32,000 nucleotides of DNA from Desulfobulbus propionicus DSM 2032 (GTDB taxonomy: Bacteria > Desulfobacterota > Desulfobulbia > Desulfobulbales > Desulfobulbaceae). A program made the position numbers and the translations under genes. The notes beneath the pieces are model-generated. The model was not told the origin of the DNA and ran no database searches. It worked only from the letters and a program-made list of their open reading frames with translations. Positions 19,964-32,000 of this stretch are shown here, piece after piece (positions within the stretch are counted from its first letter, which is position 1; each line of letters begins with the position of its first letter). The stretch covers positions 2,490,001-2,522,000 of the forward strand of contig NC_014972.1 of the NCBI RefSeq assembly GCF_000186885.1, read 5' to 3'.

Positions 19964-20017
19964 AGGAAAAATTGGTTGAATTGATTTTTTCTGTGTGTTC
20001 CATCAAGGAGGTACAAA

Positions 20018-20305
20018 ATGACGCTGACCAAAGCTGATTTAGTCCAGCAGGTCTACAAGACCCATCCCAATTTGACCAAATCACAATCCACGGAGTCCGT
20101 CGAAACCTTTTTAGCGCTCTCCAAATCCTCGTTGATCACCGGCGAGGACTTGTTGCTGAGCGGATTCGGCAAATTCAACATCAAAGATAAAAAGTCCCGG
20201 AGGGGTCGAAACCCGCAAACAGGAAACGAGTTGACCCTTGACGCCCGACGCGTGGTAACGTTTAAACCATCGGGCATTCTGCGATCCAGAATCAACAGTG
20301 ATTAA
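20018..20305 (+). CDS. ihfA: integration host factor alpha subunit (HU/IHF family)
   Basis: 95 aa. MTLTKADL...LSGFGKFNIKDKKSRRGRNPQTGNELTLDARRVVTFKPSGILRSRIN is collinear with E. coli IhfA (MALTKAEM...[30 protein letters not shown]). The RBS is AAGGAGG. Confidence 0.8.
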   Translation: MTLTKADLVQQVYKTHPNLTKSQSTESVETFLALSKSSLITGEDLLLSGFGKFNIKDKKSRRGRNPQTGNELTLDARRVVTFKPSGILRSRINSD

Positions 20306-20348
20306 CCCTGTGTAATAATCGAACAAAGAACCCTTACCAGGCTATATC

Positions 20349-20378
20349 AGGGCGCCTTCCCATTGGCGCCCTTTTTTA
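20349..20378 (+). terminator. rho-independent terminator after ihfA
   Basis: AGGGCGCC (20349-20356) pairs with GGCGCCCT (20365-20372) and is followed by TTTTTAT. Confidence 0.75.
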
Positions 20379-20408
20379 TTGCCTGGCAGTCACCCGTAGC
20401 AAAGAACA

Positions 20409-21362
20409 ATGGATACGAACCTTCCGGCGACATTCGACTTCACCTTCACACTCCTTGGCACGTCGCAACTCGACTTTCCCGATCACTTCATCGATTTTCT
20501 GTATCACGAATGCACGGATGCGTTGATCGTTGAGAGCTTGCAAAAAGTTGGCCTGACGCAACCATTGCCTGTCCGGCAGATTGCACCTTCACGCTATCAA
20601 CTCCTGGCCGGTTATCCCTATCTGCCAGCGATCAGGGATCTAGGGATCGATGAGGTTTATTGCCAACTCGTTTCCCCTGCCACCCCATTGTTCAATATCA
20701 CGTACCTGCAAATCGTTCATAGCTTGTCAACGGTCCGCAACAGTCCGGTCTTGCAAGCCCATCTTTTGCAAGAAGCGCAGCAAATCCTTGCCGACCATGA
20801 AGTAATGAAATTGTTGTCGGCCATGGGACACAAACCTCAACGGTACAAGCTGCAAGAACTTCTTGGTGTGCTACAATTAGAATCATTGGTCGTATTTGCC
20901 CTGCATAATGGGACCCTATCCTTAAAAGTTGGCAAACAATTCGCTCGTCTTTCCGAAGGAGATCAACGTTATCTGATGAAATTGATCGATACTTATCGCC
21001 CAGGAGGCTCAAAGCAGCAGAAACTGGTAGAGATGATAATCGAGATCTCTTTGCGAGAGGGCAAGTCCGTGAGTGATCTTGCAGAGGAATGGTTCAGGAC
21101 AGAAAAGGAGATCGATCAAGACAATATCCCGCAACAGCTGCAACAGCTTTTACGCTACCTGGACCACCGCTCTTCACCGGGAAAAAATGCGGCAGAAAAA
21201 AAATTCAGGCAGCTCATTCAAGAGCTGCAACCACCTGACCGAATAACGATTGAACACTGCCTTTCTTTTGAAGACGAAAGCCTGGAAGTTCGTCTGCAAT
21301 TTCCCGACAGCGACTCTCTGCGGCGGCAGTGGCCGGCTATCATCAATTGCACCACCCCTTGA
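20409..21362 (+). CDS. hypothetical protein with a divergent ParB-like N-terminal domain and ParB-like HTH region
   Basis: 317 aa. ESLQKVGLTQPLPVRQIAPSRYQLLAGYPYLPAIRDLGIDEVYCQLV follows the ParB N-domain pattern (..G..qPi.Vr....y.liaGeRR.rA....G...v...v). LLGVLQLESLVVFALHNGTLSLKVGKQFARL resembles the ParB HTH/linker. The match was made by eye only. Confidence 0.4.
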   Translation: MDTNLPATFDFTFTLLGTSQLDFPDHFIDFLYHECTDALIVESLQKVGLTQPLPVRQIAPSRYQLLAGYPYLPAIRDLGIDEVYCQLVSPATPLFNITYLQIVHSLSTVRNSPVLQAHLLQEAQQILADHEVMKLLSAMGHKPQRYKLQELLGVLQLESLVVFALHNGTLSLKVGKQFARLSEGDQRYLMKLIDTYRPGGSKQQKLVEMIIEISLREGKSVSDLAEEWFRTEKEIDQDNIPQQLQQLLRYLDHRSSPGKNAAEKKFRQLIQELQPPDRITIEHCLSFEDESLEVRLQFPDSDSLRRQWPAIINCTTP

Positions 21363-21452
21363 CACCCGTTCATCAACAGGGGCATGCAACGTCCGCCTGT
21401 GACCGCCGGTAACGCGTCGAACAGCAGGATTTCTCCACGGATTCGAAAGGTC

Positions 21453-21499
21453 AAAAAAAAGCCGAGAAAACCAGTTATCGCCCTGGTTTCCATCGGCTT
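21453..21499 (-). terminator. rho-independent terminator ending NrfD-like/MerR-like operon copy 1
   Basis: On the minus strand, AAGCCGA..AAACCAG pairs with CTGGTTT..TCGGCTT as an interrupted stem, followed by T8. On the plus strand this is A8 at 21453-21460. It lies 26 nt downstream of the MerR-like stop. Confidence 0.7.
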
Positions 21500-21524
21500 G
21501 GCTGGAACCTCTTCGACAGGATCA

Positions 21525-21944
21525 TCAAGCCGCCTTCGAATCGGCCTTCTGCACTTTTTTGATTTTCTGCTTGTCGATTTTCTTGGGGACCAGGGCATTG
21601 GCCATGAACGCTGTGCACTGTTTGCGTTTTTCAAAAGGACAATCGGTGATATTCCAGCAAGGTGTGTACTGGAGCAACTTTTTCACGGCGGCAATGGATA
21701 CACCATGTTCGTGGATCATCTCCCGCAGACACTCGATCCATTTGATATCGTTCATGGTGTAGTACCGCCACTTCCCCTTGCGCAAGGGAGCAACCAGCCC
21801 CTCTTCCTCATAAATCCGCAAGGTCCGGGGATGCACCCCAAGCATCTGCGCCGCTACCCCGATGGTAAATATCGCTTTTTGTTCATCAACCATTTCAACC
21901 CTCGCAATGGTAAATTCATGACCGTTCCCCAAGGGAACGGTCAT
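21525..21944 (-). CDS. MerR/HspR-type HTH regulator with a conserved four-Cys cluster (copy 1)
   Basis: The HTH is FTIGVAAQMLGVHPRTLRIYEEEGLV, with wing and alpha3-4 NDIKWIECLREMIHEHGVSIAAVKKLL. This is followed by PCWNITDCPFEKRKQCTA and a Lys-rich tail. The Cys are at 72/96/102/110. An alternative start at 21893 is preceded by GAGGG. By eye it is about half identical to the 28573..29016 product across the core. Confidence 0.8.
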   Translation of the reverse strand: MTVPLGNGHEFTIARVEMVDEQKAIFTIGVAAQMLGVHPRTLRIYEEEGLVAPLRKGKWRYYTMNDIKWIECLREMIHEHGVSIAAVKKLLQYTPCWNITDCPFEKRKQCTAFMANALVPKKIDKQKIKKVQKADSKAA

Positions 21945-21965
21945 GAATCGGATCGATTCCCAGGA

Positions 21966-23150
21966 TCAATGCGCCTCGTGCTCGGTGAAACTCTTGCCAA
22001 AGAATCGTTCGCCCTGAAGGAAGGCTATGCCGGTCAAACCGATACCCGCCATGACCACAAGCCACTCATATCCAGATGGTGTGTAGGTAAGATAGGTGGG
22101 TAAATTATCATAACCGGCATATTGAGGCACGATCTGCCCACCAACCACCATGTTGAGCCGGGAGACAAACATGCCAACCAAGGTCATCAACGCCGCGGTC
22201 GACATGGCCGCCACGCTCTTTAAACGGCTGAGAAGAAGCAGAACGACTGGCGCCGCCAGTCCGACTCCGACCTCAAGTGCCCAGAAATTGAATGACAGCG
22301 GACCGATATAAAGAGCATTGGCAGCGATTTTTCCGTCATTGACGCCTCCGACATAGAACGAAGCCATTCTCCAGAAGGTGGAGACAGCAACCAGGATCAG
22401 CATCAGCAGCAATACCTTGCCGGCAGCGTGCACACCTTCAAAAACATGCTGTTCCATCTTGCGGCCACGAATGACATAGGCATAGTGGGTGAAAAGAATG
22501 GCTGCAGCCGCCCCGGATAGAAAGGCGCAGGCGAGGAAATACACCGGCAATTGGGCCCCATACCAAAACGGTCGAGCGGCTAGGGTGGCGAACACCCCAC
22601 CCAAACAGGTGTTGGCCGCAACCTCGGCCAAGGCGCCGAGAATGCCAAGCACCAGGGCCAAGGTGTAATGGCGGGTGAGGATAAGCCAGAACTCAAGAAG
22701 AATGAAACCAAGCGCCAAACCGTACAGCGTGCCCATCCACCAAATGTTGGAAGTGATGTTTGGCGAAATGATATTGTAGATCGCCATGCGCCATGGACTT
22801 TCGATTTCCATGCCGATGACCGTGAACCCGCTGAGGATGGTGATCAAGGAGATCCACACCATTCTGTTGGCCAGGGGAGCCAGTTTGTTGCCGCCGAACA
22901 CATGGCTGATCGCCGCCAACAAACACAATCCCGTGGAGGTGATGGCAAAAAAAGCGTACGTGGAAATCAAAAGCCCCCAGGGAACTTCACGTGTGTTGTT
23001 GAATATATGTTCATGACCAATAAAAAAACCAACTAGGCCGACACCAACGCCGACGATCAAAAGTAACCCGAAAATACCGGATAAGGTTTTTACCAGGGGA
23101 CTCGCCACCTCCGGTTCAGCTGTTGCAGTCAGTGAAAATCCGTTTGCCAT
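21966..23150 (-). CDS. NrfD/PsrC-family polytopic membrane protein (quinone-interacting subunit type), copy 1
   Basis: 394 aa and highly hydrophobic, with roughly 10 TM segments. It carries the NrfD-type signatures REVPWGLLISTYAFFAITSTGLC and EIESPWRMAIYNIISPNITSNIWWMGTLYG. The RBS is AAGGAGG. It is a paralogue of 29102..30295. Confidence 0.85.
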   Translation of the reverse strand: MANGFSLTATAEPEVASPLVKTLSGIFGLLLIVGVGVGLVGFFIGHEHIFNNTREVPWGLLISTYAFFAITSTGLCLLAAISHVFGGNKLAPLANRMVWISLITILSGFTVIGMEIESPWRMAIYNIISPNITSNIWWMGTLYGLALGFILLEFWLILTRHYTLALVLGILGALAEVAANTCLGGVFATLAARPFWYGAQLPVYFLACAFLSGAAAAILFTHYAYVIRGRKMEQHVFEGVHAAGKVLLLMLILVAVSTFWRMASFYVGGVNDGKIAANALYIGPLSFNFWALEVGVGLAAPVVLLLLSRLKSVAAMSTAALMTLVGMFVSRLNMVVGGQIVPQYAGYDNLPTYLTYTPSGYEWLVVMAGIGLTGIAFLQGERFFGKSFTEHEAH

Positions 23151-23197
23151 GGGCCTAACCTCCTTTTGTGCTTGTTCAATAATGACAATGATGCTGA

Positions 23198-23431
23198 TTA
23201 TAACCGCGCTGGCTCAATCATCTTCTCCCTGTTCTCTTCGCTGGCAAGGGACCCGAGGCCAATCAAGACGACGATGGCTGAAAAGGGCCCTAAAAGAAGA
23301 AAAAGAACAAAGGTGAGACAGAACCAGAAAGACTCGACAATTTGCGTGACATGTGCCCGCATCCACAAGGCGAGAGAATGACCGCCATCATTTCCCGACT
23401 GTTTGGTTTGACTGTACGGTAGGATATTCAT
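23198..23431 (-). CDS. small single-TM protein upstream of NrfD-like copy 1
   Basis: 77-aa ORF with AAGGGGGA 5-6 nt before the ATG. The TM segment is FWFCLTFVLFLLLGPFSAIVVLIGLG, followed by the acidic tail SLASEENREK. It lies 47 nt upstream of the NrfD-like start and downstream of the sigma-54 promoter. No homology was recognised. Confidence 0.5.
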   Translation of the reverse strand: MNILPYSQTKQSGNDGGHSLALWMRAHVTQIVESFWFCLTFVLFLLLGPFSAIVVLIGLGSLASEENREKMIEPARL

Positions 23432-23484
23432 TGGTTTCCCCCTTTTCGTTATCTGCCGATGAAGCGTTTCGATGCCTTTGACAA

Positions 23485-23500
23485 CGCAAGGGATATGCCA
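23485..23500 (-). promoter_or_regulatory. sigma-54 (-24/-12) promoter
   Basis: The minus strand reads TGGCATATCCCTTGCG. This matches TGGCAY-N5-TTGC with the exact GG-N10-GC spacing. The GC lies 55 nt upstream of the ATG at 23431. Confidence 0.65.
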
Positions 23501-24091
23501 CCTGGATATGCGAGCGCCTTCTTTTCACGAAAGAATGACATAACGACTTGAAGTTACGTTTGTTTTACAATCTACAACAATTTGTTTTTAAGTTTTCAGT
23601 CCATCTACGATTGTCAATATTTTACTGGTACACGATCAAAATTAGCCCACATGCCACACTACGATTGATCAAAATACGCCTGATCTTTTCCGTGACACCA
23701 AGGGGACGCATGCATACTCCCAGGAAAAAAACGTCAATAATTTCAAACGATATCGTCCAGCAAGGCCAAAACTACCAACCCATGCCTTTCTTTACCGCTT
23801 CCGATAACAAAAGAACGGCTTCAAAAAAATATCTATAAATTCAATGTATTATAAAAAGCCAGCCACACGAGCGGCGCATTTCAAGTCCATCCAGACAAGA
23901 AACCACGCAACGACAGGGGACCGCTTCAAGGGAACGGTAGAGGGGTACCGTCATCGATACTCCACGAACCAATGAGTTAATCAAACAGGAAGGGAGGGGG
24001 GAGAGAGTGACAAGCCATGCTAGGTGTCGCGGAAAGAGTTGGAACCGCTATTGTCAGGAAAGTTGTCAATAGCGGTGGAGAGCTGAAAGGG

Positions 24092-24116
24092 CGGGACGGG
24101 CAGGACACCCGTCCCG
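24092..24116 (-). terminator. terminator-like GC hairpin after the cytochrome gene
   Basis: CGGGACGGG (24092-24100) pairs with CCCGTCCCG (24108-24116). It lies 18 nt downstream of the stop at 24134 and is followed on the minus strand by CCCTTTC. A second 10-bp inverted repeat, ACCGCTATTG/CAATAGCGGT, sits at 24044-24076. Confidence 0.5.
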
Positions 24117-24133
24117 ATATGCTGAGCGGACGA

Positions 24134-24853
24134 TCAGTGTTCTTTTTTCCCGTGGTCCTTGCCTTCGACTTGGGCCGCGCCGGCAAATTTGCGCTCGAAT
24201 CCCTTTACGCCAATGTGACAGGTGGTACAACGGGTGTTGGAGGCAAAGGCGTCGGTGCCGTTATGGCAGACACCACAGTATTTGCCCGCATAGAGCGCCT
24301 CCATGGTAAATTTTTCTGGATGTTCTTCGGCTGCACCTTTGCGCATTTCAAAGGCCTTATCATGGCAGCTGGCACAGTCAAGCCCCATGTCAACATGCCC
24401 CTTGTGCTCGAATATGACCGATTTCACGGGAACATTAAACACAATGGTCTCCGGCTGCTTCATATCGCTACCATGGCAGACCTTGCAGGTTTCTGGTCCG
24501 GTGGTGTTGAACGCCATTTTGCCATCATGGCAGGCACCGCAGTATTTGCCGGCATCCAGGGAAGCCATGTTATAATCGCCCTTGGCCTTGGTTGATCCGC
24601 GTTTGCGCTCAAAGAGATCGGGGTGACAGCTGTCACAACTCAAGCCAGCGGTCACCACATGGGATTTGTGGCTGAACATCTCCTTGACCGGTTCCACAGC
24701 GATCACCTGGGTTTGGCCATAGGATTCAAATTGCTTGTCCTGGGCGGGCGGCTGTGCTGCGGTCGGGGCAGTTGCCTGAATATCGGCGGTGCACAATACC
24801 CCTGCGGCGACAAGAAGACCAAGGGCTGCGAGTATTTTCGTTTTTGTGTTCAT
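24134..24853 (-). CDS. periplasmic hexahaem cytochrome c (two tandem c7/c3-like trihaem domains)
   Basis: It has a signal peptide, MNTKTKILAALGLLVAAGVLCTA. There are six CxxCH motifs: CDSCH, CGACH, CKVCH, CASCH, CGVCH and CTTCH. They fall into two repeats of the pattern F.HK.H.....L.C..CH...F........GKYCG.CH.G..AF....C..CH. Confidence 0.9.
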   Translation of the reverse strand: MNTKTKILAALGLLVAAGVLCTADIQATAPTAAQPPAQDKQFESYGQTQVIAVEPVKEMFSHKSHVVTAGLSCDSCHPDLFERKRGSTKAKGDYNMASLDAGKYCGACHDGKMAFNTTGPETCKVCHGSDMKQPETIVFNVPVKSVIFEHKGHVDMGLDCASCHDKAFEMRKGAAEEHPEKFTMEALYAGKYCGVCHNGTDAFASNTRCTTCHIGVKGFERKFAGAAQVEGKDHGKKEH

Positions 24854-24874
24854 AGTCCCCTCTCCTTCCGCTGT

Positions 24875-25630
24875 TTAGGCATTCATATAAAAGACATTGG
24901 GCAAGGCGCCGGTTTCCGGCCGCAGGACCCAGACCGTTGTTTCCGGCCGATGCACCAGTTTATAGACCTCGCTGTTTGGATCGCTGAGATCGCCGAACAC
25001 CCGGACCTTAGCCGGACAGGCTTCCACGCAGGCTGTGTCTTTTTTCCCTTTGGACAAGCGGGTGTCATAGCAGAAATTGCATTTATCGACCGCGCGAATT
25101 TCTTCATTGAAGTACCGTGCATTATAGGGACAAGCGGCCATACAGGTCTTGCAGCCGATGCATTTCTTGCTATCCATGACCACGATACCGGTGGTTTTAT
25201 CCTTGTAGGTGGCCACGGTGGGGCAAACGCGGACACAGGGCGGCTCGTTGCACTGGTTGCAGAGCACGGGCATGAATATTGTCTCTTTTTCTTTGGGTCC
25301 GATCTCCCGGACTCTTTCCAGGATCATGGTCCGCCAACCATAGGGAGGCACATGGTTGGTTTGGACACAGGCCTCCATGCAGCGTTCGCAATCGACGCAG
25401 AGATTCTGGCGCATGACCATGCTGTAATGAGGGCTGTAGGGGTATTTCTCGGTCTTTGGCGGAGCGCCCACAGCACTTTCGGCGTTGCGAACGCTGGTCA
25501 GCGACAGTATCGTCCCCCCCATGAACAATCCGGTAATGGCGAGTCCGGCGCGCAAAAAGGTTCGGCGCTCAAGTGAAGGCAGGTGTTCCACACCTTCATT
25601 GTTTAATTTTTCCAGCTCATTAATGTTCAT
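24875..25630 (-). CDS. Tat-exported 4x[4Fe-4S] ferredoxin-type subunit (NrfC/PsrB/HybA/HmcB family)
   Basis: The twin-arginine signal is SLERRTFLRAGLAITGLFMGG. There are four cluster motifs: CVDCERCMEAC, CNQCNEPPCVRVCP, CIGCKTCMAACP and CNFC...CVEACP. Confidence 0.9.
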   Translation of the reverse strand: MNINELEKLNNEGVEHLPSLERRTFLRAGLAITGLFMGGTILSLTSVRNAESAVGAPPKTEKYPYSPHYSMVMRQNLCVDCERCMEACVQTNHVPPYGWRTMILERVREIGPKEKETIFMPVLCNQCNEPPCVRVCPTVATYKDKTTGIVVMDSKKCIGCKTCMAACPYNARYFNEEIRAVDKCNFCYDTRLSKGKKDTACVEACPAKVRVFGDLSDPNSEVYKLVHRPETTVWVLRPETGALPNVFYMNA

Positions 25631-25973
25631 TCCATACCCTCAAGATAAAAAGTAACGAAGACGACATCGGCACCTTGTGCTACAATGTGTTGTTATGGCC
25701 CGAAAAAAAAAGCCCTAGAATGAATAGCCACTCATTAATTAAAAAATGCAACGAGGGAACATAACCCAAAACCAAGAGAAGAGCAAGTTTTCAAATATAT
25801 GCTATAGTAAGGCAACTTCGCACAGCCAATTTTCACTCCTGGCACCCGTTGCGGCGGAGTGCCGCTGATGCAATCGAAATCAGTGTTTCGTTTCTCGCAC
25901 GGCTGAATCTTTTTATCCCGGAATGTGAACTGTTGACCGGTTCGCGCTTCCCTCCACCAAGCGGCGGCTGACC

Positions 25974-28379
25974 ATGAATAAAAATCTTTCCCGGGAACAC
26001 CCTGTGTTCCAGAACACATTGGCGGTATTCTCCCTTGACCGCGACTGCCGGATCATCGGGTTGAATAAAAATGCAGAACTGCTCACCGGTCGGCCCTTAG
26101 GCGAATTGTTTGGCAAATCAATGGATGAGCTCCTGCTGTTCAAAGGACAAACCGTCAATTTGGCCGAACTCTTCTCCCAGGCGGATTGGGAACAATCGCT
26201 TTCCCGCCAGTCCCTCTTGCTGCAGACTGACCAGGAAATCCGTCCCATCGACGTCCTGGCCACGGTGACCCCATTATGGGATCGCCACCGCGCGCTCTGC
26301 GGCGCGCTTGTCACCCTGGACAGCACCAATGAATCGCTCTATCACCAACTGCTTCTGGACAGCGTCTCCGAAGGCGTGCTAACCGTCAACCGCGACATGG
26401 AAATCATCTCGTTCAACCGCGCAGCGGAAGCGATCACCGGTTGGAAGACCGAGGAAATTCTCGGCAAGAACTGTCAGGATGTCTTTCCGGAAGAACTGTG
26501 CGAAAACGGCTGTCTGATTCGCTCCTCGATCGAGCGGGAGCAGTCGTTTGCGGCCCAGACCGTATTCATGACCCATAAGGACGGTCGGTTTTTCCCCCTG
26601 TCGCTAACCTCCTCGCCGCTCTACGATCTCAACGGCAAGGTCATCGGCGGAGTACAGACCTTTCATGATTGCTCCGACAGCCTCAACAATGCCTTGATCC
26701 TGGCTTCGGTGGCCGACGGCGTGTTCACCATCGACCGCAACCGGACCATCACCTCCTTCAATCGAGCGGCGGAATCGATCACCGGCTGGAAACAGGAAGA
26801 GGTGATCGGTAAACCCTGCAACGAAATTTTCCATTCCAGCGTCTGCGGCAGCGACTGCATGCTGATGAAGGCTATCGACCGCAACAACATGTACATCGAC
26901 CGGTCCATCTTCATCAAGGGCAAGGCGGGCAATTCCATCCCGGTGACCATCAGCTCGGCGCCGTTGTTCGACGATTTCGGCAATATCATCGGCGGCATCG
27001 AAACGTTCCGCGACAACACCTCCTCCATCCGTGAAAGCCTGATCCTTGATTCCATAGCCGATGGCGTGTTCACCGTGGACCGCAACTGGAACATCACCTC
27101 GTTCAACAGGGCCGCCGAGGAGATCACCGGCTGGTCACGGGAGGATGCCATGGGCATGTCCTGCTCAGACATCTTCCACTCGTCGATCTGCGGCAAAAAC
27201 TGCGCCATCGCCGAAAGCCTCTACAGCGGCAAACCGGTGGCCAACCGCTCGATCACCATCCGCAACAGTCAGGGGGAAAAGGTGCCGATCAGTATCAGCG
27301 CCGCCCCGCTCACCGATCATGAAGGCAACATTATCGGCGGGGTGGAGACCTTCCGCGATCTGACCGCGATCACCAGCCTGCGCCAGCAATTGAGCCAGAA
27401 ATATACCTTTGACGCGATCATCTCCAAGTCAGCCGCCATGCAGCGGCTGTTCAACATTCTTCCGGAAATCGCCCGCAGCCCCAGCACCGTGCTCATTCTC
27501 GGGGAATCCGGCACCGGCAAGGAATTGGTCGCCAGGGCGCTCTACAATGCTAGCGAACGCAAGGACAAGCCCTTTGTGGTGGTCAACTGCGCGGCCCTGC
27601 CGGAAACTCTGCTTGAATCCGAACTGTTCGGTTACAAGGCCGGCGCCTTCACCGATGCCCGCAAGGACAAGATCGGCCGTTTTGCCGCCGCCGAGGGCGG
27701 CACACTGTTCCTCGACGAGATCGGCGACATTCCCGGCGCCGTTCAGGTCAAACTGCTGCGCGTTCTCCAGGAAAAGGTCTACGAGCCGCTGGGCTCCAAC
27801 ACGCCGGTCAAGGCCGATGTGCGCATCATCACCGCCACCAACCGCAACCTCCAGGCCCTGGTCAAGGAAGGAGCTTTCCGCGACGACCTCTTCTACCGCC
27901 TCAATGTGGTCAAAATCAACCTGCCGCCGTTGCGTGAACGCAAGGAGGACATCCCGTTGTTGATCGATCACTTCATTAAAAAATACAGTGCCCAACAGGG
28001 TAAGGACATCGTCGGTATATCCAGCGGCGCCTTGGCCATCCTCATGCGCTACGACTATCCCGGCAACATCCGTGAATTGGAAAATATTGTCGAATATTCC
28101 TTTATCCTCTGCGAAGGCGGCTATATCCAACCCCAACATCTGCCCGAACCCTTTGCCGCCGGTTTCGAGCAACCCGCCTCCCGCGCCGTGCAGGATGACG
28201 GGCCGCAGACGCTTGAGGAGATCGAAAAACAGGCGATCATTCTCAGTCTGGAGCGCAACCGTTGGCGCAAGATGGCCACCTGCCGGGAACTGGCGATCTC
28301 CAAGGACACTCTGCGCCGCAAGATCGAACGCTATGGTATCCACAATCCGCTGACGGGCGAAGCCGAACAGGAAGAATAA
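25974..28379 (+). CDS. sigma-54-dependent transcriptional activator (bEBP) with four N-terminal PAS domains, an AAA+ sigma-54 interaction domain and a Fis-type HTH
   Basis: 801 aa. Walker A is GESGTGKE, the GAFTGA loop reads GAFTDA, and Walker B is LFLDEIG. RVIAATN-like (RIITATN) and FRDDLFYRLNV are present. The C-terminal HTH is ATCRELAISKDTLRRKIERYGI. Confidence 0.92.
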   Translation: MNKNLSREHPVFQNTLAVFSLDRDCRIIGLNKNAELLTGRPLGELFGKSMDELLLFKGQTVNLAELFSQADWEQSLSRQSLLLQTDQEIRPIDVLATVTPLWDRHRALCGALVTLDSTNESLYHQLLLDSVSEGVLTVNRDMEIISFNRAAEAITGWKTEEILGKNCQDVFPEELCENGCLIRSSIEREQSFAAQTVFMTHKDGRFFPLSLTSSPLYDLNGKVIGGVQTFHDCSDSLNNALILASVADGVFTIDRNRTITSFNRAAESITGWKQEEVIGKPCNEIFHSSVCGSDCMLMKAIDRNNMYIDRSIFIKGKAGNSIPVTISSAPLFDDFGNIIGGIETFRDNTSSIRESLILDSIADGVFTVDRNWNITSFNRAAEEITGWSREDAMGMSCSDIFHSSICGKNCAIAESLYSGKPVANRSITIRNSQGEKVPISISAAPLTDHEGNIIGGVETFRDLTAITSLRQQLSQKYTFDAIISKSAAMQRLFNILPEIARSPSTVLILGESGTGKELVARALYNASERKDKPFVVVNCAALPETLLESELFGYKAGAFTDARKDKIGRFAAAEGGTLFLDEIGDIPGAVQVKLLRVLQEKVYEPLGSNTPVKADVRIITATNRNLQALVKEGAFRDDLFYRLNVVKINLPPLRERKEDIPLLIDHFIKKYSAQQGKDIVGISSGALAILMRYDYPGNIRELENIVEYSFILCEGGYIQPQHLPEPFAAGFEQPASRAVQDDGPQTLEEIEKQAIILSLERNRWRKMATCRELAISKDTLRRKIERYGIHNPLTGEAEQEE
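26337..27362 (+). repeat. three tandem ~345-nt (115-aa) PAS-domain-coding repeats inside the bEBP gene
   Basis: DSVSEGVLTVNRDMEIISFNRAAEAITGW (aa 129), ASVADGVFTIDRNRTITSFNRAAESITGW (aa 244) and DSIADGVFTVDRNWNITSFNRAAEEITGW (aa 359) recur at an exact 115-aa period. Each ends in (V/I)IGG(V/I)(Q/E)TF(H/R)D. Confidence 0.8.
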
Positions 28380-28401
28380 ATCCGGCACGTTCATCCGGCA
28401 C

Positions 28402-28444
28402 AAAAAAAGCGTTCCGAACTTTGCTCGGAACGCTTTTTCGTTTT
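28402..28444. terminator. bidirectional rho-independent terminator (bEBP on +, MerR-like copy 2 on -)
   Basis: An A7 run precedes AGCGTTCCGA (28408-28417), a loop ACTTTGC, and TCGGAACGCT (28425-28434), followed by TTTTCGTTTT. The hairpin is flanked by U-tracts when read on either strand. Confidence 0.8.
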
Positions 28445-28572
28445 CCTCATCGTCTCAACCGTGCACCACCGACTGTTGGTCGAACGGTACTCCTGAGCCA
28501 ACTCGACACGGCCTTAGGCACACGATCTTTGCCGGTTGCCGGGGATCGAGGAACAACCGATTCGAAAATCGA

Positions 28573-29016
28573 TCAACCGGACGATTGGTGCTTTTTTTTT
28601 TGCCCGGGTTCGCCCCGACTCTGCCGATCCTTTTCCTTGGCCTCCAGCCGGGCGGCCGCATCACCTACCGGATGCAGCGTCCGCGGCACGGCCCGATCGA
28701 CCTTGGCCGTGCACTGTTGCTGGATTTCTGCTGGACATCCAGCCACTTCCCAGCAGGGAACCAAATCGAGCAGCTTTTTCAGCCCCGGAATACTGATCCC
28801 CTCTTCATGGATAAAGGTGCGCAGACAGGTTATCCATTGAATATCATCGGCGGAAAACATCCGCCGGTTGCCGACAAGGGTCGGCTTGATCAATCCTTCC
28901 TGTTCATAAATCCGCAACGTCCGCGGATGCACATTCAGCAACTTGGCGGCGACTCCGATCGGATAGATAGGCACATCGGACCGTATCGCCTGTATTTCCG
29001 TTTTCTTTCTTGCCAT
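28573..29016 (-). CDS. MerR/HspR-type HTH regulator with a conserved four-Cys cluster (copy 2)
   Basis: 147 aa with the RBS GGAGG 6 nt upstream. The core is IYPIGVAAKLLNVHPRTLRIYEQEGLI...DDIQWITCLRTFIHEEGISIPGLKKLL..PCWEVAGCPAEIQQQCTA. The Cys are at 64/88/94/102, the same C-x23-C-x5-C-x7-C spacing as copy 1. Confidence 0.8.
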   Translation of the reverse strand: MARKKTEIQAIRSDVPIYPIGVAAKLLNVHPRTLRIYEQEGLIKPTLVGNRRMFSADDIQWITCLRTFIHEEGISIPGLKKLLDLVPCWEVAGCPAEIQQQCTAKVDRAVPRTLHPVGDAAARLEAKEKDRQSRGEPGQKKKHQSSG

Positions 29017-29047
29017 GCCGGCCTCCTCTGTCAGTGCGGGGCGCCGG

Positions 29048-29084
29048 GACGGAGCGGCAAGCTGTCAGCGCCTGCCGCTCCGTC
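29048..29084 (-). other. 12-bp perfect GC-rich hairpin between NrfD-like copy 2 and MerR-like copy 2
   Basis: GACGGAGCGGCA (29048-29059) pairs with TGCCGCTCCGTC (29073-29084) around a 13-nt loop. No U-tract follows on the minus strand. It is flanked by a direct CTGTCAG repeat. Confidence 0.5.
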
Positions 29085-29101
29085 GTTCGACACACAATCC
29101 A

Positions 29102-30295
29102 TCAGTGCTCTTCGGACAGATGACCGCGGAACAGCCGTTCGCCCATCATGAAGAGGATTCCGCAGAAGGTAAAGCCGGACAGGGTCACCATCCACTCGTG
29201 CAAGGTCGGCGCATAGGGCAAAATATGCGGCAGATCAACAATATTGAATTGATGAAACCCGGGAATGATTTGCCCAACGATCACCAGATCGTAGCGCATG
29301 ACGAAGATGCCGATGATGCTGGCCAGCGAGCCGAGCGCCATGGCCGTCAGGTTCTTGGCCCGAACCGCAAGGATGATCAGGAAGGGGATGACCAGCCCCA
29401 GAGCAACCTCGCCATACCAGAAATTCTTGGCAAAGGGACCGTTGATCAGGGCCATGATCGCCTCGTATTTTCCCGGCGGATGACCGGAGATACCGGAGAT
29501 CAATTTCCAGGTGGTGAAGAACATGATGATGAGGTACAGCAACGCTCCCAGTTTGGCCACAGAACGCAGGGACTCCTGCAGCTGCTCGCTCATCTTCCAG
29601 CCGTTGATCTTATACCCCAGCCAATGAAAGAAAATCACCGTGGCGCACCCGGACATCATGGCCGAGGTGATGAAGTAGATCGGCATATAGGGGCCATGCC
29701 AGAACTCACGGCCATTCAGGAGTCCAAATACCGCCCCGAGATTGGAATGAGCGGCAACACCCGAAATAACGCCCAATAGACCGCACATGCCGGCAATCTT
29801 ATGCCTGCCGGCCTGCAACAGGGCAAACTCGATCAGCATGAAGAACAGGTAGGCGCCGTACAACGTGCCCATCCACCAAATGTTGGAACTGAGATTCGGG
29901 GAGATGATGTTGTAGATAGCCATGCGCCAGGGATTTTCAATCTCAAAGGCGATGACCAGAAAACCCGCCACAATGGTGGCAATGGCCAGATAGACCGAAC
30001 GTTTGGCAATGGGCTTGAAGGCCTCGAAGCCGAACACATGGCCAATGGACGAAACCAGACACAGCCCTGTCGAGGTCACGACAAAAAAGACGTAAGCGCC
30101 CAGCATCAGCCCCCATGGGACTTCGCGGGTGACACCATACACATGTTCATGGCCGGCAAACATGGCGTGCACGCCAAAGGCGATTCCCACCAGGGTGAAC
30201 AGACCCAACAGACCGATCACGCCGTTGTACACGCTGGACCGGCTCCCTTCAAGCCCCCCTTCCTGGGGCAGAACCTTGGTTAATATATTTTCCAT
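29102..30295 (-). CDS. NrfD/PsrC-family polytopic membrane protein, copy 2
   Basis: 397 aa with the RBS AAAGGAGAAGG. It shares long blocks with copy 1: REVPWGLMLGAYVFFVVTSTGLC, EIENPWRMAIYNIISPNLSSNIWWMGTLYG and MVVGGQI/LVIVGQI. No FeS or cytochrome gene is adjacent. Confidence 0.85.
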   Translation of the reverse strand: MENILTKVLPQEGGLEGSRSSVYNGVIGLLGLFTLVGIAFGVHAMFAGHEHVYGVTREVPWGLMLGAYVFFVVTSTGLCLVSSIGHVFGFEAFKPIAKRSVYLAIATIVAGFLVIAFEIENPWRMAIYNIISPNLSSNIWWMGTLYGAYLFFMLIEFALLQAGRHKIAGMCGLLGVISGVAAHSNLGAVFGLLNGREFWHGPYMPIYFITSAMMSGCATVIFFHWLGYKINGWKMSEQLQESLRSVAKLGALLYLIIMFFTTWKLISGISGHPPGKYEAIMALINGPFAKNFWYGEVALGLVIPFLIILAVRAKNLTAMALGSLASIIGIFVMRYDLVIVGQIIPGFHQFNIVDLPHILPYAPTLHEWMVTLSGFTFCGILFMMGERLFRGHLSEEH

Positions 30296-30391
30296 GGCAC
30301 CTTCTCCTTTACGGAATCAACGACCCCAATCGTCGTTATTCCGGCTGATTAATAACCGTTGAATCAAACCACATCGGGACGAACAATTTGG

Positions 30392-30508
30392 TCAGGGCAA
30401 ATCGCTTTCTTCTCGCAAAGACTGAAGAACCGGCTTGATTCTCAGATCAAACAGCGTATGGAGAACAGCACCACCCAACCAGATAACGAAAAAAATAAGA
30501 GCTTCCAT
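30392..30508 (-). CDS. candidate 38-aa single-TM peptide upstream of NrfD-like copy 2 (too short for the ORF track)
   Basis: Hand translation gives MEALIFFVIWLGGAVLHTLFDLRIKPVLQSLREESDLP. A strong RBS, AAGGAG, lies 6 nt before the ATG at 30508. Position and architecture (TM then acidic tail SLREES) match the 77-aa ORF of copy 1 (tail SLASEEN). Confidence 0.4.
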   Translation of the reverse strand: MEALIFFVIWLGGAVLHTLFDLRIKPVLQSLREESDLP

Positions 30509-31332
30509 TTGCTTCTCCTTGTTCCGGATCTCCGGACAGTTGTTGTGCACCAGGATTTATTGGCGGATAAACACCCGGTTGATTGTCTTTTGCGCGGCAC
30601 CTCCTTGCGATGCGACCCGGCACCATTCTGCGGCTGCCGGATCTGGTCCTCGAATATTTCCTTGCTGCTTTTTTATCCAGCGGCGAATACGCTGTCAAGA
30701 AAAACAACGGTCGATTGTTAAAAAATATGTAAATAAATAGATCAATATTCGCCCGATAAAAAGATTTCAACTTGCATGCGAAATAAATATTTTCGATATT
30801 ATCCACCGCAATTATTTGTATATATTTATTTTTAGGCATTTTTATTCAATAATTAATCAAGACACCACTACCCTTTCCCCGAAATAGCAATCCAACTCGC
30901 GGTTCTCATTATGCGTCTAAAAAATAACATTATGATCAAAATGCGCCCACACTGTTCACCCTCTCCGCAACCGCAGGTTCCCGGTATCCCTCAGAACCGG
31001 ACCAAAGGGGCAGAATATCGACCTGATAGAAAAGAACACCCGAGCAGCAGGTAATGCTTGACTATGGAACAAATACTGCAAATGATATTTTTAGCTACTC
31101 GCCTTCATCCAGATGACGAGCGAGCTTCCTTTTTCCCCTTCAAGGTGGCGGCCTTGGAGGGGATTTCTTTTCCCCTCCCCTTCCTCCGGCTTTACCTTTA
31201 CCGCGATTTATGGTAGCCCTGATCAGACATGCCGCTTGCTTGGGCGGCCGTGGCCTTGGGCCTCCCGCCCGCGCCATCGTCAACTTTGGGCGCATTTTTT
31301 CCATCGTCTTGTTCATTCCCCAGGAGCCTTGC

Positions 31333-32000
31333 GTGCAAAAATTCTACAAGAATCTTTCCATCTGGCTGATCATCGCTCTTTCCGCCCTGCTGCTGTTGCA
31401 TTACTGCAAGAAATCACCGGATCGCCACCATACCGTTGCCTATACCGAATTCCTGAAAAAGGCGGACAGCGGCGTACTCTCCACGGTCACCATGATCGAC
31501 CAAACCATACTTTGGGAAACCGCGGACGGTGAGCGTTTCAAAACGGTTGTGCCGCAAGCCCAGGCCACCGTTGACCACCTGCTGCGCAAAAACGTCACGA
31601 TCCGCGCTGAAATCCCGCCCCAGACCCCGTGGTTTGTGCAAACGCTCCTATCCTGGCTGCCCATTTTACTTTTTGCTGTTCTCTGGTTCTTTTATTTCCA
31701 AAAAGGAGGCAGCCAAGGGGGAAGTGGTTCCGGCAGGGCCATGGCATTTGGCAAAAGCAGGGCCCGCCTGATCAACCCAGAGGAATCGAAAGTCAAACTT
31801 GCCGACGTGGCTGGCATCGACGAAGCGAAGGAAGAAGTAGAGGAAATCGTTGATTTTTTAAAAAATCCCGGCAAATTCGTTGCAGCTGGCGCCCGAATTC
31901 CCACCGGCGTGCTCCTCTACGGAGAACCGGGAACCGGTAAAACCCTGCTGGCCAAGGCCATTGCCGGTGAAGCAGGCGTGCCTTTTTTCTCCATCAGCGG
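31333..32000 (+). CDS. ftsH: ATP-dependent zinc metalloprotease FtsH, N-terminal ~222 aa (continues beyond the window)
   Basis: Absent from the ORF track because it has no stop in the window. The start is GTG at 31333, preceded by AGGAG with 6-nt spacing. Translation gives (M)[21 protein letters not shown]... (TM1), then [23 protein letters not shown] (TM2), then [13 protein letters not shown]...[29 protein letters not shown]...[32 protein letters not shown]. Confidence 0.93.

Follow-up and report, generated by a model that had tools for sequence, protein, structure and literature searches.

Two NrfD-regulator cassettes around one iron-sulfur/cytochrome gene pair in Desulfobulbus propionicus and related Desulfobulbia

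Anaerobes of the sulfur and metal cycles, among them the relatives of cable bacteria, connect their quinone pool with the periplasm mainly through NrfD-type modules. In a stretch of 32,000 nucleotides from Desulfobulbus propionicus DSM 2032 (NC_014972.1, positions 2,490,001 to 2,522,000; here called the window), two genes for NrfD-like membrane proteins, nrfD1 and nrfD2, each preceded by a gene for a small membrane protein and followed by a gene for a MerR-like regulator, lie on either side of the genes for an NrfC-like iron-sulfur (FeS) protein and a multihaem cytochrome. An earlier note on this DNA had taken both NrfD proteins to be partner-less and knew of no described system in which a transcription factor gene is fixed behind an NrfD-type gene. 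The locus raises the question of which proteins NrfD1 and NrfD2 work with, and why there should be two of them, each tied to a regulator. The best reading, which could equally well hold or fail, is that a single periplasmic FeS/cytochrome unit has two membrane anchors, which are regulated separately, each by an autoregulator of its own.

Gene order and the partners of the two NrfD proteins

For comparison, related loci were gathered from genomes (79 loci, one genome per species being scanned, with at least 530 relatives in all) and from metagenomes (80 loci, scanned with NrfD2 as query), and open reading frames (ORFs) called in them were scored against the window proteins; the labels L001 to L173 denote individual related loci. 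Across about 160 related loci, mostly from Desulfobulbia, the prevailing order is small2-nrfD2-merR2, an antisense sigma-54 activator gene, nrfC-cytochrome, a gap of 0.5–1.4 kb and small1-nrfD1-merR1, and this layout is conserved throughout the class Desulfobulbia. In the window, ORF translation recovered all nine genes at the coordinates and on the strands given before, the activator gene alone being on the plus strand, and Pfam and NCBIfam matches agreed with the gene content then proposed. Gene content, paralogy and synteny, and with them the promoters and RNA hairpins described below, are observations.

Module 1 consists of small1 (23198–23431), coding for a 77-aa membrane protein with the motif SExFWF...LFL.GPFS, nrfD1 (21966–23150; PF03916, 1.4e-28) and merR1 (21525–21944), and module 2 of small2 (30392–30508), coding for a 38-aa single-helix protein with the motif ME..F.V.WLGGA.LHTLFD.K.KPV, nrfD2 (29102–30295; PF03916, 3.9e-30) and merR2 (28573–29016), all on the minus strand. 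Direct comparison gave 43% identity over 370 aa for NrfD1 and NrfD2 (E 2e-109), 49% over 108 aa for MerR1 and MerR2 (E 3e-40), and no detectable similarity between small1 and small2. The modules had been described as paralogous three-gene units; this is correct for nrfD and merR, but as the small proteins show no detectable similarity, the paralogous unit is nrfD plus merR and not all three genes. Small1 matched no family in Pfam or NCBIfam. The small proteins are conserved, small1 in 55 of 75 evaluable loci and small2 in 63 of 72, and because of this conservation at the protein level small1 and small2 are real genes, which probably encode accessory subunits.

The nrfC-like gene (24875–25630, minus strand) encodes a protein of 251 aa with Fer4 domains only (Fer4_11, 1.9e-24), in whose translation a twin-arginine motif (ERRTFLR), predicting export by the twin-arginine translocation (Tat) pathway, and four Cys clusters of the [4Fe-4S] type can be read. 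It scores 171.6–180 bits on the NrfC, TtrB and DsrO models (DsrO, 171.6), under every cut-off, and in the PDB it matches PsrB (2vpw_B, 3e-43) and also the FeS part of ActB. The cytochrome (24134–24853, minus strand) has six CxxCH motifs in two c7-type triheme domains (Cytochrome_C7, 9.2e-31; TIGR04257, 129.8 bits) and matches GSU1996 (3ov0, 2.1e-42) and subunit ActA of alternative complex III (ACIII; 8k9e_A, 2.9e-6). These motifs and profile matches, together with those of the activator given below, bear out the Tat-exported NrfC-like protein, the hexahaem c7 cytochrome and the PAS-rich sigma-54 activator that had been predicted. The size of the cytochrome encoded between nrfC and nrfD1 varies between loci, with forms of about 150 aa, about 240 aa or 326 aa (e.g., L038, 5265–5717; L035, 5895–6875); the 240-aa form has two units and six haems, as in the window, the 326-aa form has three c7 stretches, and the 150-aa form probably has one c7 unit.

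In 56 of 64 evaluable genome loci, nrfC-cytochrome lies upstream of nrfD1, and in 11 compact loci the order nrfC-cytochrome-nrfD1 occurs with gaps of less than 300 nt. None of these 11 has small1 or the sigma-54 promoter of module 1, and merR1 is missing in 8 of the 10 that could be evaluated. One such operon (L035) has only unrelated genes on either side, from which it follows that NrfC, a c7-type cytochrome and an NrfD1-type protein are a self-sufficient gene set. For the other paralogue, an nrfD2-type gene directly precedes nrfC-cytochrome in L110 and L158, a Desulfuromonas locus (L086) contains an nrfD-nrfC-cytochrome c7 operon whose NrfD is 61% identical to NrfD2, and in 8 further loci merR2 is the sole gene between nrfD2 and nrfC. 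The description of the NrfD proteins as partner-less applies to immediate adjacency in the window only; relatives place both NrfD types beside nrfC-cytochrome, and because of these minimal operons and the upstream nrfC-cytochrome genes the premise of an NrfD protein without a partner is wrong. The locus in the window is thus a three-subunit module in a more elaborate version, its two flanking NrfD genes having become units of their own.

NrfD1 and NrfD2 belong to family PF03916 (100.9 and 106 bits, cut-off 25.8), and orthologues of NrfD1 are 58–94% identical across Desulfobulbia. Whether the paralogues fall within a characterised complex family, as the earlier note had considered, was checked by profile, and the equivalogs for DsrP, HmcC, NrfD, QrcA, QrcC and DsrO all stayed under their cut-offs; NrfD1 and NrfD2 reached 23 and 53 for DsrP (cut-off 350) and 31.5 and 59 for HmcC (cut-off 550), and the NCBIfam equivalog for NrfD sensu stricto gave 39.7 bits (cut-off 347.6). 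An AlphaFold2 (AF2) model of NrfD1, with a predicted local distance difference test (pLDDT) of 80 and a predicted template modelling score (pTM) of 0.85, has about ten long helices and shows the NrfD-family fold, which is cofactor-free and made of two four-helix bundles with 8 or 10 helices. Its best match is ActC of ACIII (6btm_C; template modelling (TM) score 0.83), followed by ActF and then PsrC; NrfD1 was placed by fold comparison alone, as sequence and profile searches of it against the PDB gave no match. Both NrfD proteins would interact with quinone.

Like ACIII (ActABCDEF), the locus combines a c7-like multihaem subunit and an NrfC-type FeS subunit with an NrfD-type subunit of ten helices, and ACIII itself contains two NrfD-like paralogues and small subunits with one helix each. 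A single ACIII-like complex could therefore be envisaged that holds NrfD1 and NrfD2, in the manner of ActC and ActF, together with NrfC, the cytochrome and the small proteins, the promoters only tuning stoichiometry. The NrfD1 model matches both ActC and ActF, the cytochrome and NrfC match ActA and ActB, and nrfC-cytochrome is flanked by both nrfD genes in most loci. However, many genomes have one arrangement only, either the compact nrfC-cytochrome-nrfD1 or nrfD2-nrfC-cytochrome (L086, L110, L158), modules are also found alone, promoters and leaders of the two units are entirely different, and the called genes of the locus include no equivalent of the molybdopterin-like ActB1 domain, ActD or ActE. 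Identity to ACIII is 15–18% only, with no match by sequence search, and here the two NrfD genes do not share a unit, each being regulated in a different way and accompanied by a transcription factor gene. A single complex appears unlikely.

Cysteine-rich regulators coupled to the nrfD genes

A merR gene follows nrfD1 in 65 of 74 loci and nrfD2 in 69 of 74. When the types of NrfD and regulator were compared, 195 pairings were matched (NrfD1 with MerR1, NrfD2 with MerR2) and 0 were mismatched, from which we conclude that the nrfD-merR pair was duplicated as a unit and stayed together. The duplicated coupling first noticed in this one sequence is therefore real, and the survey of gene neighbourhoods shows that the adjacency recurs across loci and is not confined to one genome. 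In the literature searched no description of an NrfD-MerR pairing was found, in agreement with the earlier note, nor one of ImcH with a MerR protein; two papers on Desulfobulbales mention unrelated NrfD proteins only. On one contig of a metagenome-assembled genome (MAG; L045, 4500–10117) small1-nrfD1-merR1 occurs twice in tandem with identical scores; either the duplication happened very recently or the assembly is at fault.

Both regulators contain the MerR_1/MerR helix-turn-helix (HTH) domain (PF13411, 5.7e-18 and 3.8e-15). Gene callers place the start of MerR1 at 21893, giving 122 aa instead of the 139 aa assumed earlier, and this is likely the true start. Both MerR groups share four invariant Cys residues, of which the first lies in the helix W-I-x-C-L-R and the other three belong to P-C-W-x4-C-x7-C; in MerR2 they are C64, C88, C94 and C102. 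In the AF2 model of the regulator, the HTH has a pLDDT of 83–92 and superposes best on GlnR and TnrA (root-mean-square deviation to GlnR, 1.6), the DNA-binding domain being closest to GlnR, TnrA and HspR, and no long dimerisation helix is confidently modelled. The regulators are not of the SoxR [2Fe-2S] type, as they score 19.8 on SoxR (cut-off 116.9) and carry PCW-x4-C-x7-C and not CIGCGC...C.

The MerR-like genes might also be generic HspR-type repressors of stress or oxidative stress, with their main targets elsewhere (ftsH, chaperones) and a position that is historical. HspR is the best profile model for both proteins, relatives are labelled HspR by JGI, and ftsH adjoins module 2 in the window and the relatives' genes in L085, L089, L171 and L172. 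Like HspR and TnrA/GlnR, the window regulators are short MerR-family proteins with a most similar winged-helix domain, and a candidate 20-bp dyad, discussed below, has the size of the HAIR site. Nevertheless, their scores on the HspR model (67.9 and 62.9 bits) stay under the cut-off of 105, they add the invariant PCW-x4-C-x7-C and a Cys in the preceding helix, and their context is one of respiratory and not of chaperone or nitrogen genes, the neighbours in related loci being NrfD, NrfC, cytochrome and activator genes; gene calling in the locus of the window itself gave no chaperone gene (related loci were not searched for chaperones). The paralogue-matched adjacency persists over about 135 loci and past the duplication, and merR is lost where nrfD rejoins the nrfC-cytochrome operon (8 of 10 evaluable compact loci). 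Ordinary HspR orthologues, which the earlier note had named as a possible outcome, were rejected on score, extra Cys motif and respiratory context, and generic stress repressors are very unlikely.

When 1.84 billion representative proteins were searched by profile, 970 clusters of regulator relatives were obtained at E<=1e-10. The C-W...C...C motif is present in 106 of the best 150 representative relatives, with a second CW motif in most. One relative matches the NCBIfam 'two-CW domain' (NF045718) weakly, with 17.8 bits against a cut-off of 35, whereas the window regulators carry one CW motif, corresponding to the first CW half only, and gave no match to NF045718 at E<=0.01; for this domain no relevant publication and no published function were found in the literature searched. 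Judged from these motifs and profiles, the regulators are part of a large uncharacterised HspR-like family with a "CW" Cys motif, of which the NrfD-linked, single-CW form is the Desulfobulbia variant. Ten genomic contexts of CW relatives were sampled from other Thermodesulfobacteriota and Aerophobetes: six adjoin a protein of about 480 aa of the NapC/NirT/NrfH multihaem type (five of these neighbours, when scanned, gave 48–62 bits on the NrfH model), two lie within 4 kb of an NrfD-NrfC-cytochrome c7 operon, four are beside ftsH and three have unrelated neighbours. Thus, in the contexts sampled, the CW regulators are recurrently tied to quinone-interacting, periplasm-facing electron-transfer proteins.

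Several of these contexts may be described individually. An arrangement of ftsH, cytochrome and regulator recurs in relatives (L085, L089, L112, L171, L172), where one or two genes for NapC/NirT-type multihaem proteins of about 480 aa and then a gene for a two-CW MerR protein come after ftsH on its strand. In L086 (5001–6188) two tandem two-CW MerR genes stand amid multihaem cytochrome genes, 3 kb from the nrfD-nrfC-cytochrome c7 operon, and L173, from a MAG, shows a cytochrome-FeS-NrfD operon, a gene for a DUF2339 protein, a MerR gene and a NapC/NirT-type cytochrome gene. The ftsH gene of the window (about 31333–32000, plus strand) is divergent from module 2 and runs past the window end.

TnrA and GlnR are controlled by glutamine synthetase and HspR by DnaK, in each case through a partner protein. 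The window regulators are structurally closest to these partner-controlled proteins, and an NrfD-like protein could in the same way report the state of the quinone pool or membrane to the co-encoded MerR-like protein by contact, in which case the cassette would serve signalling no less than respiration. Such a sensor pair would agree with the strict, paralogue-matched NrfD-MerR adjacency, with the minority of loci that have cassettes and no nrfC-cytochrome nearby, and with the 8 loci in which merR2 lies between nrfD2 and nrfC within an apparent operon. On the other hand, the four invariant Cys suggest direct sensing through a metal or Fe-S site, and two-CW relatives adjoin unrelated membrane proteins, such as NapC/NirT-type cytochromes, so that any contact of the regulator would not be NrfD-specific. 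A sensor pair of this kind is distinctly unlikely.

Different control regions and complementary hairpins

The small1-nrfD1-merR1 unit has a sigma-54 promoter, TGGCATATCCCTTGCG, at 23485–23500 (minus strand; TGGCAT-N5-TTGCG). Searches with the strict sigma-54 consensus gave no match, and the site, which has C changed to T at -24, was recovered when mismatches were allowed; TGGCAY-N5-TTGC is found at the identical position in 61 loci and is missing from the compact loci. About 50 nt upstream of the promoter lies an IHF-like site, TTCAAGTCGTTA (23541–23552, minus strand), and TTCAAnnnnTTR is kept at this place in many loci. With a -24/-12 promoter and an adjacent activator gene, module 1 is a predicted sigma-54-dependent operon. 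The activator gene (25974–28379, plus strand) encodes an enhancer-binding protein with four PAS domains, a sigma-54 AAA+ domain and HTH_8; it is present in most loci that carry the module-1 sigma-54 promoter and lies antisense between merR2 and nrfC in 30 of 51 evaluable metagenome loci. PAS domains 2 to 4 each contain C-x8-C-x3-C (KNCQDVFPEELCENGC, KPCNEIFHSSVCGSDC and MSCSDIFHSSICGKNC), which is absent from PAS 1, and may be redox- or metal-sensing PAS domains. Overlapping the -12 element, a dyad TTGC-N9-11-GYAA occurs in 24 of 61 loci, compared with 2.6 expected from shuffles; with low confidence, it is a candidate operator for MerR1, of 20 bp like the HAIR site of HspR. As to the claim that module 1 is insulated from the FeS/cytochrome pair, the intergenic region 23432–24133 is indeed AT-richer (GC 0.43) and the sigma-54 promoter is real, but the 8-bp GC hairpin at 24115–24093, 19 nt past the cytochrome stop codon, has no strong T-run.

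Module 2 has a control region (30509–30698, minus strand) of another kind, which consists of a sigma-70-like promoter and a structured leader. The conserved promoter is TTTTTCTTGACA-N16/17-ATAAAA, with TTGACA at 30698–30693 and ATAAAA at 30676–30671, and the leader of about 155 nt contains the invariant AAGGAGGTG at 30606–30598, a hairpin called HP-2 at 30549–30580 (minus strand) with the invariant loop CCGCCA at 30566–30561, and a second short hairpin at 30536–30523 directly before the ribosome-binding site. In HP-2, 87.9% of cells are paired compared with 53.9% after shuffling (0 of 500 shuffles as high; slid controls, at most 54%), and a covariance model of it matches the window at 30541–30586 (E 3.3e-5). 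This support is comparative only, since a single-sequence fold of the leader did not yield HP-2. No Rfam family was found anywhere in 20000–32000 of the window, and the leader is a candidate new cis-regulatory RNA. Two other explanations of the control region were rejected, MerR-type activation at a 19–20-bp spacer because the spacer is of 16–17 nt and not conserved, and a leader peptide after AAGGAGGTG because neither a start codon nor a reading frame is conserved. The promoter search across loci found no sigma-54 promoter upstream of nrfC or small2, so that control of these two units by the activator is unsupported.

A second hairpin, HP-1 (23374–23396, minus strand), lies within the small1 codons N-D-G-G-H and, in other clades, in the small1-nrfD1 spacer. 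Its invariant loop, UGGCGG (23387–23382), is the exact Watson-Crick complement of the HP-2 loop CCGCCA. HP-1 was recovered in the centroid fold, and its covariation (83.5% paired compared with 55.8% shuffled, 0 of 500 as high) includes a synonymous Asn change paired with a change from His to Arg. On the same strand, the covariance model of HP-2 finds module-2 leaders only, and on the opposite strand it finds the small1 coding region in several loci. Hairpins of the HP-1 type are present in at least 52 of 102 distinct regions upstream of nrfD1 (background 0.05 per region) and those of the HP-2 type in 47 of 70 regions upstream of nrfD2 (background 0.03); where both regions are visible (33 loci), both hairpins occur in 16 loci, neither in 9, HP-2 only in 6 and HP-1 only in 2. 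Upstream of nrfC, the region 25631–25973 is a long leader, strongly conserved within the genus, with a likely promoter TTGCTC-N17-TATGTT and a palindrome AATGA-N8-TCATT at 25719–25736, whose sole other match in the 32-kb window is HP-1 (2 matches, 0.34 expected).

The complementary loops suggest a loop-loop contact between the mRNAs of the two modules, which we regard as a lead and not as a finding. Carried further, the two cassettes could be an RNA-wired switch between alternative anchors, in which the UGGCGG loop of the sigma-54-induced module-1 mRNA kisses the CCGCCA leader loop and alters translation or stability of module 2, while each Cys4 regulator reads its own NrfD complex or the quinone pool. 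If true, such mRNA-mRNA cross-talk between paralogous respiratory operons, with a redox-sensing MerR subfamily for quinone modules, would be a new principle in the regulation of anaerobic respiration. Against it, the hexamer is common, occurring 52 times in the window, the loci are related by descent, and there is no covariation between the two loops because they never vary; moreover, one lineage with the module-2 loop CCGCUA has HP-2 and no module-1 hairpin at all. In that lineage a compensatory loop change was sought, and the outcome, as HP-1 is absent there, does not fit the kissing model. The switch is a rather unlikely extension of the two-anchor reading.

Two proposed anchors for one periplasmic unit and their known relatives

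According to the two-anchor reading, the NrfC-type FeS protein and the c7 hexahaem cytochrome would form one periplasm-facing electron-transfer unit that docks on either of two paralogous, ActC-like NrfD membrane subunits, and the assembled set would link the menaquinone pool with periplasmic cytochromes, in either direction of electron flow. Each nrfD would form a transcription unit of its own with a dedicated small membrane protein and an HspR-like MerR regulator, whose four-Cys site would probably bind a metal or Fe-S cluster and which would return a redox signal to its own operon. Module 1 would be switched on at the sigma-54 promoter, with the PAS-rich activator encoded nearby as the most likely inducer, whereas module 2 would run from its sigma-70-like promoter through the structured leader. 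This was the first of two alternatives in the earlier note, and it stands in part: gene sets, coupling and separate promoters make it the best fit, but its premise of an NrfD without partner does not hold.

Several points weigh against it. The data fit alternative and simultaneous use of NrfD1 and NrfD2 alike, and it is we who infer that a complex forms, that the anchors are used alternatively, and which signals and targets the regulators have. There is no nrfC-cytochrome within 7–8 kb of module 1 in 8 of 64 loci and of module 2 in about 13 of 51, the neighbours of these stand-alone cassettes being unrelated genes. An operator for MerR2 was sought and none was identified, and the candidate MerR1 dyad is imperfect in the window, with GCAT instead of GCAA as its right arm. 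The Cys region of the regulator is modelled poorly (pLDDT 39–64), and binding of a metal or cluster is therefore a guess. Finally, the compared loci share ancestry, and because of this relatedness the counts of loci are not counts of independent events.

Among known systems, the set resembles in its design the cytochrome-FeS-NrfD core of ACIII, Qrc, DsrJOP and Cbc, and it is a member of none that could be tested here. Qrc (QrcABCD), from a sulfate-reducer lineage, has a hexahaem QrcA-like cytochrome, an FeS subunit and an NrfD-type subunit as well; in contrast, the locus is without QrcB, and the scores for QrcA (29.3, cut-off 180), QrcC (102.6, cut-off 400) and the NrfD-type subunit fall far short of the cut-offs. 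Geobacter Cbc3/Cbc4, Shewanella SirCD and E. coli NrfBCD follow the same design of a membrane subunit with an NrfC-like FeS protein and a c-type cytochrome, but the descriptions of these systems include neither a transcription factor gene that constantly follows the NrfD gene nor a duplication of the cassette. An FeS protein, a multihaem cytochrome and an NrfD-type protein are also common to DsrJ/DsrO/DsrP of DsrMKJOP and to the 'TMH1-dsrOhPh-tetrahaem' locus, described in 2026 from cable bacteria and some members of the Desulfobulbales, for which electron transfer from quinone to the periplasm has been proposed (PMC13047784). The latter has, in cable bacteria, a small single-helix protein as well and occurs in the same bacterial order, whereas by its description it has the order O-P-tetrahaem, compared with C-hexahaem...small-D here, and a different number of haems, and PMC13047784 makes no mention of a MerR protein.

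Further genes lie beyond merR1. A 317-aa protein encoded at 20409–21362 (plus strand), adjoining merR1, has only a weak ParB N-terminal-like match (E 6.5e-4) and keeps this place in L001, L003 and L004, the closest contigs, and a gene of the HU/IHF family is found at 20018–20305 (plus strand), about 1.2 kb downstream of merR1.

The respiratory core of the locus is of a known kind; new are the fixed, duplicated cassette of NrfD, regulator and small protein, the dual control by sigma-54 and by a sigma-70 promoter with leader, and the complementary hairpins. For the question of how cells choose among NrfD-type modules, the locus is a conserved, compact case, pairing one periplasmic FeS/cytochrome unit with two differently controlled membrane subunits. 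It also brings into view a large Cys-rich HspR-like family tied to quinone-interacting membrane proteins, NrfD here and NapC/NirT-type multihaem cytochromes in relatives. If the two-anchor reading is true, it would provide a handle on the switching of electron-transfer routes in Desulfobulbia and a first function for the CW-motif regulators.

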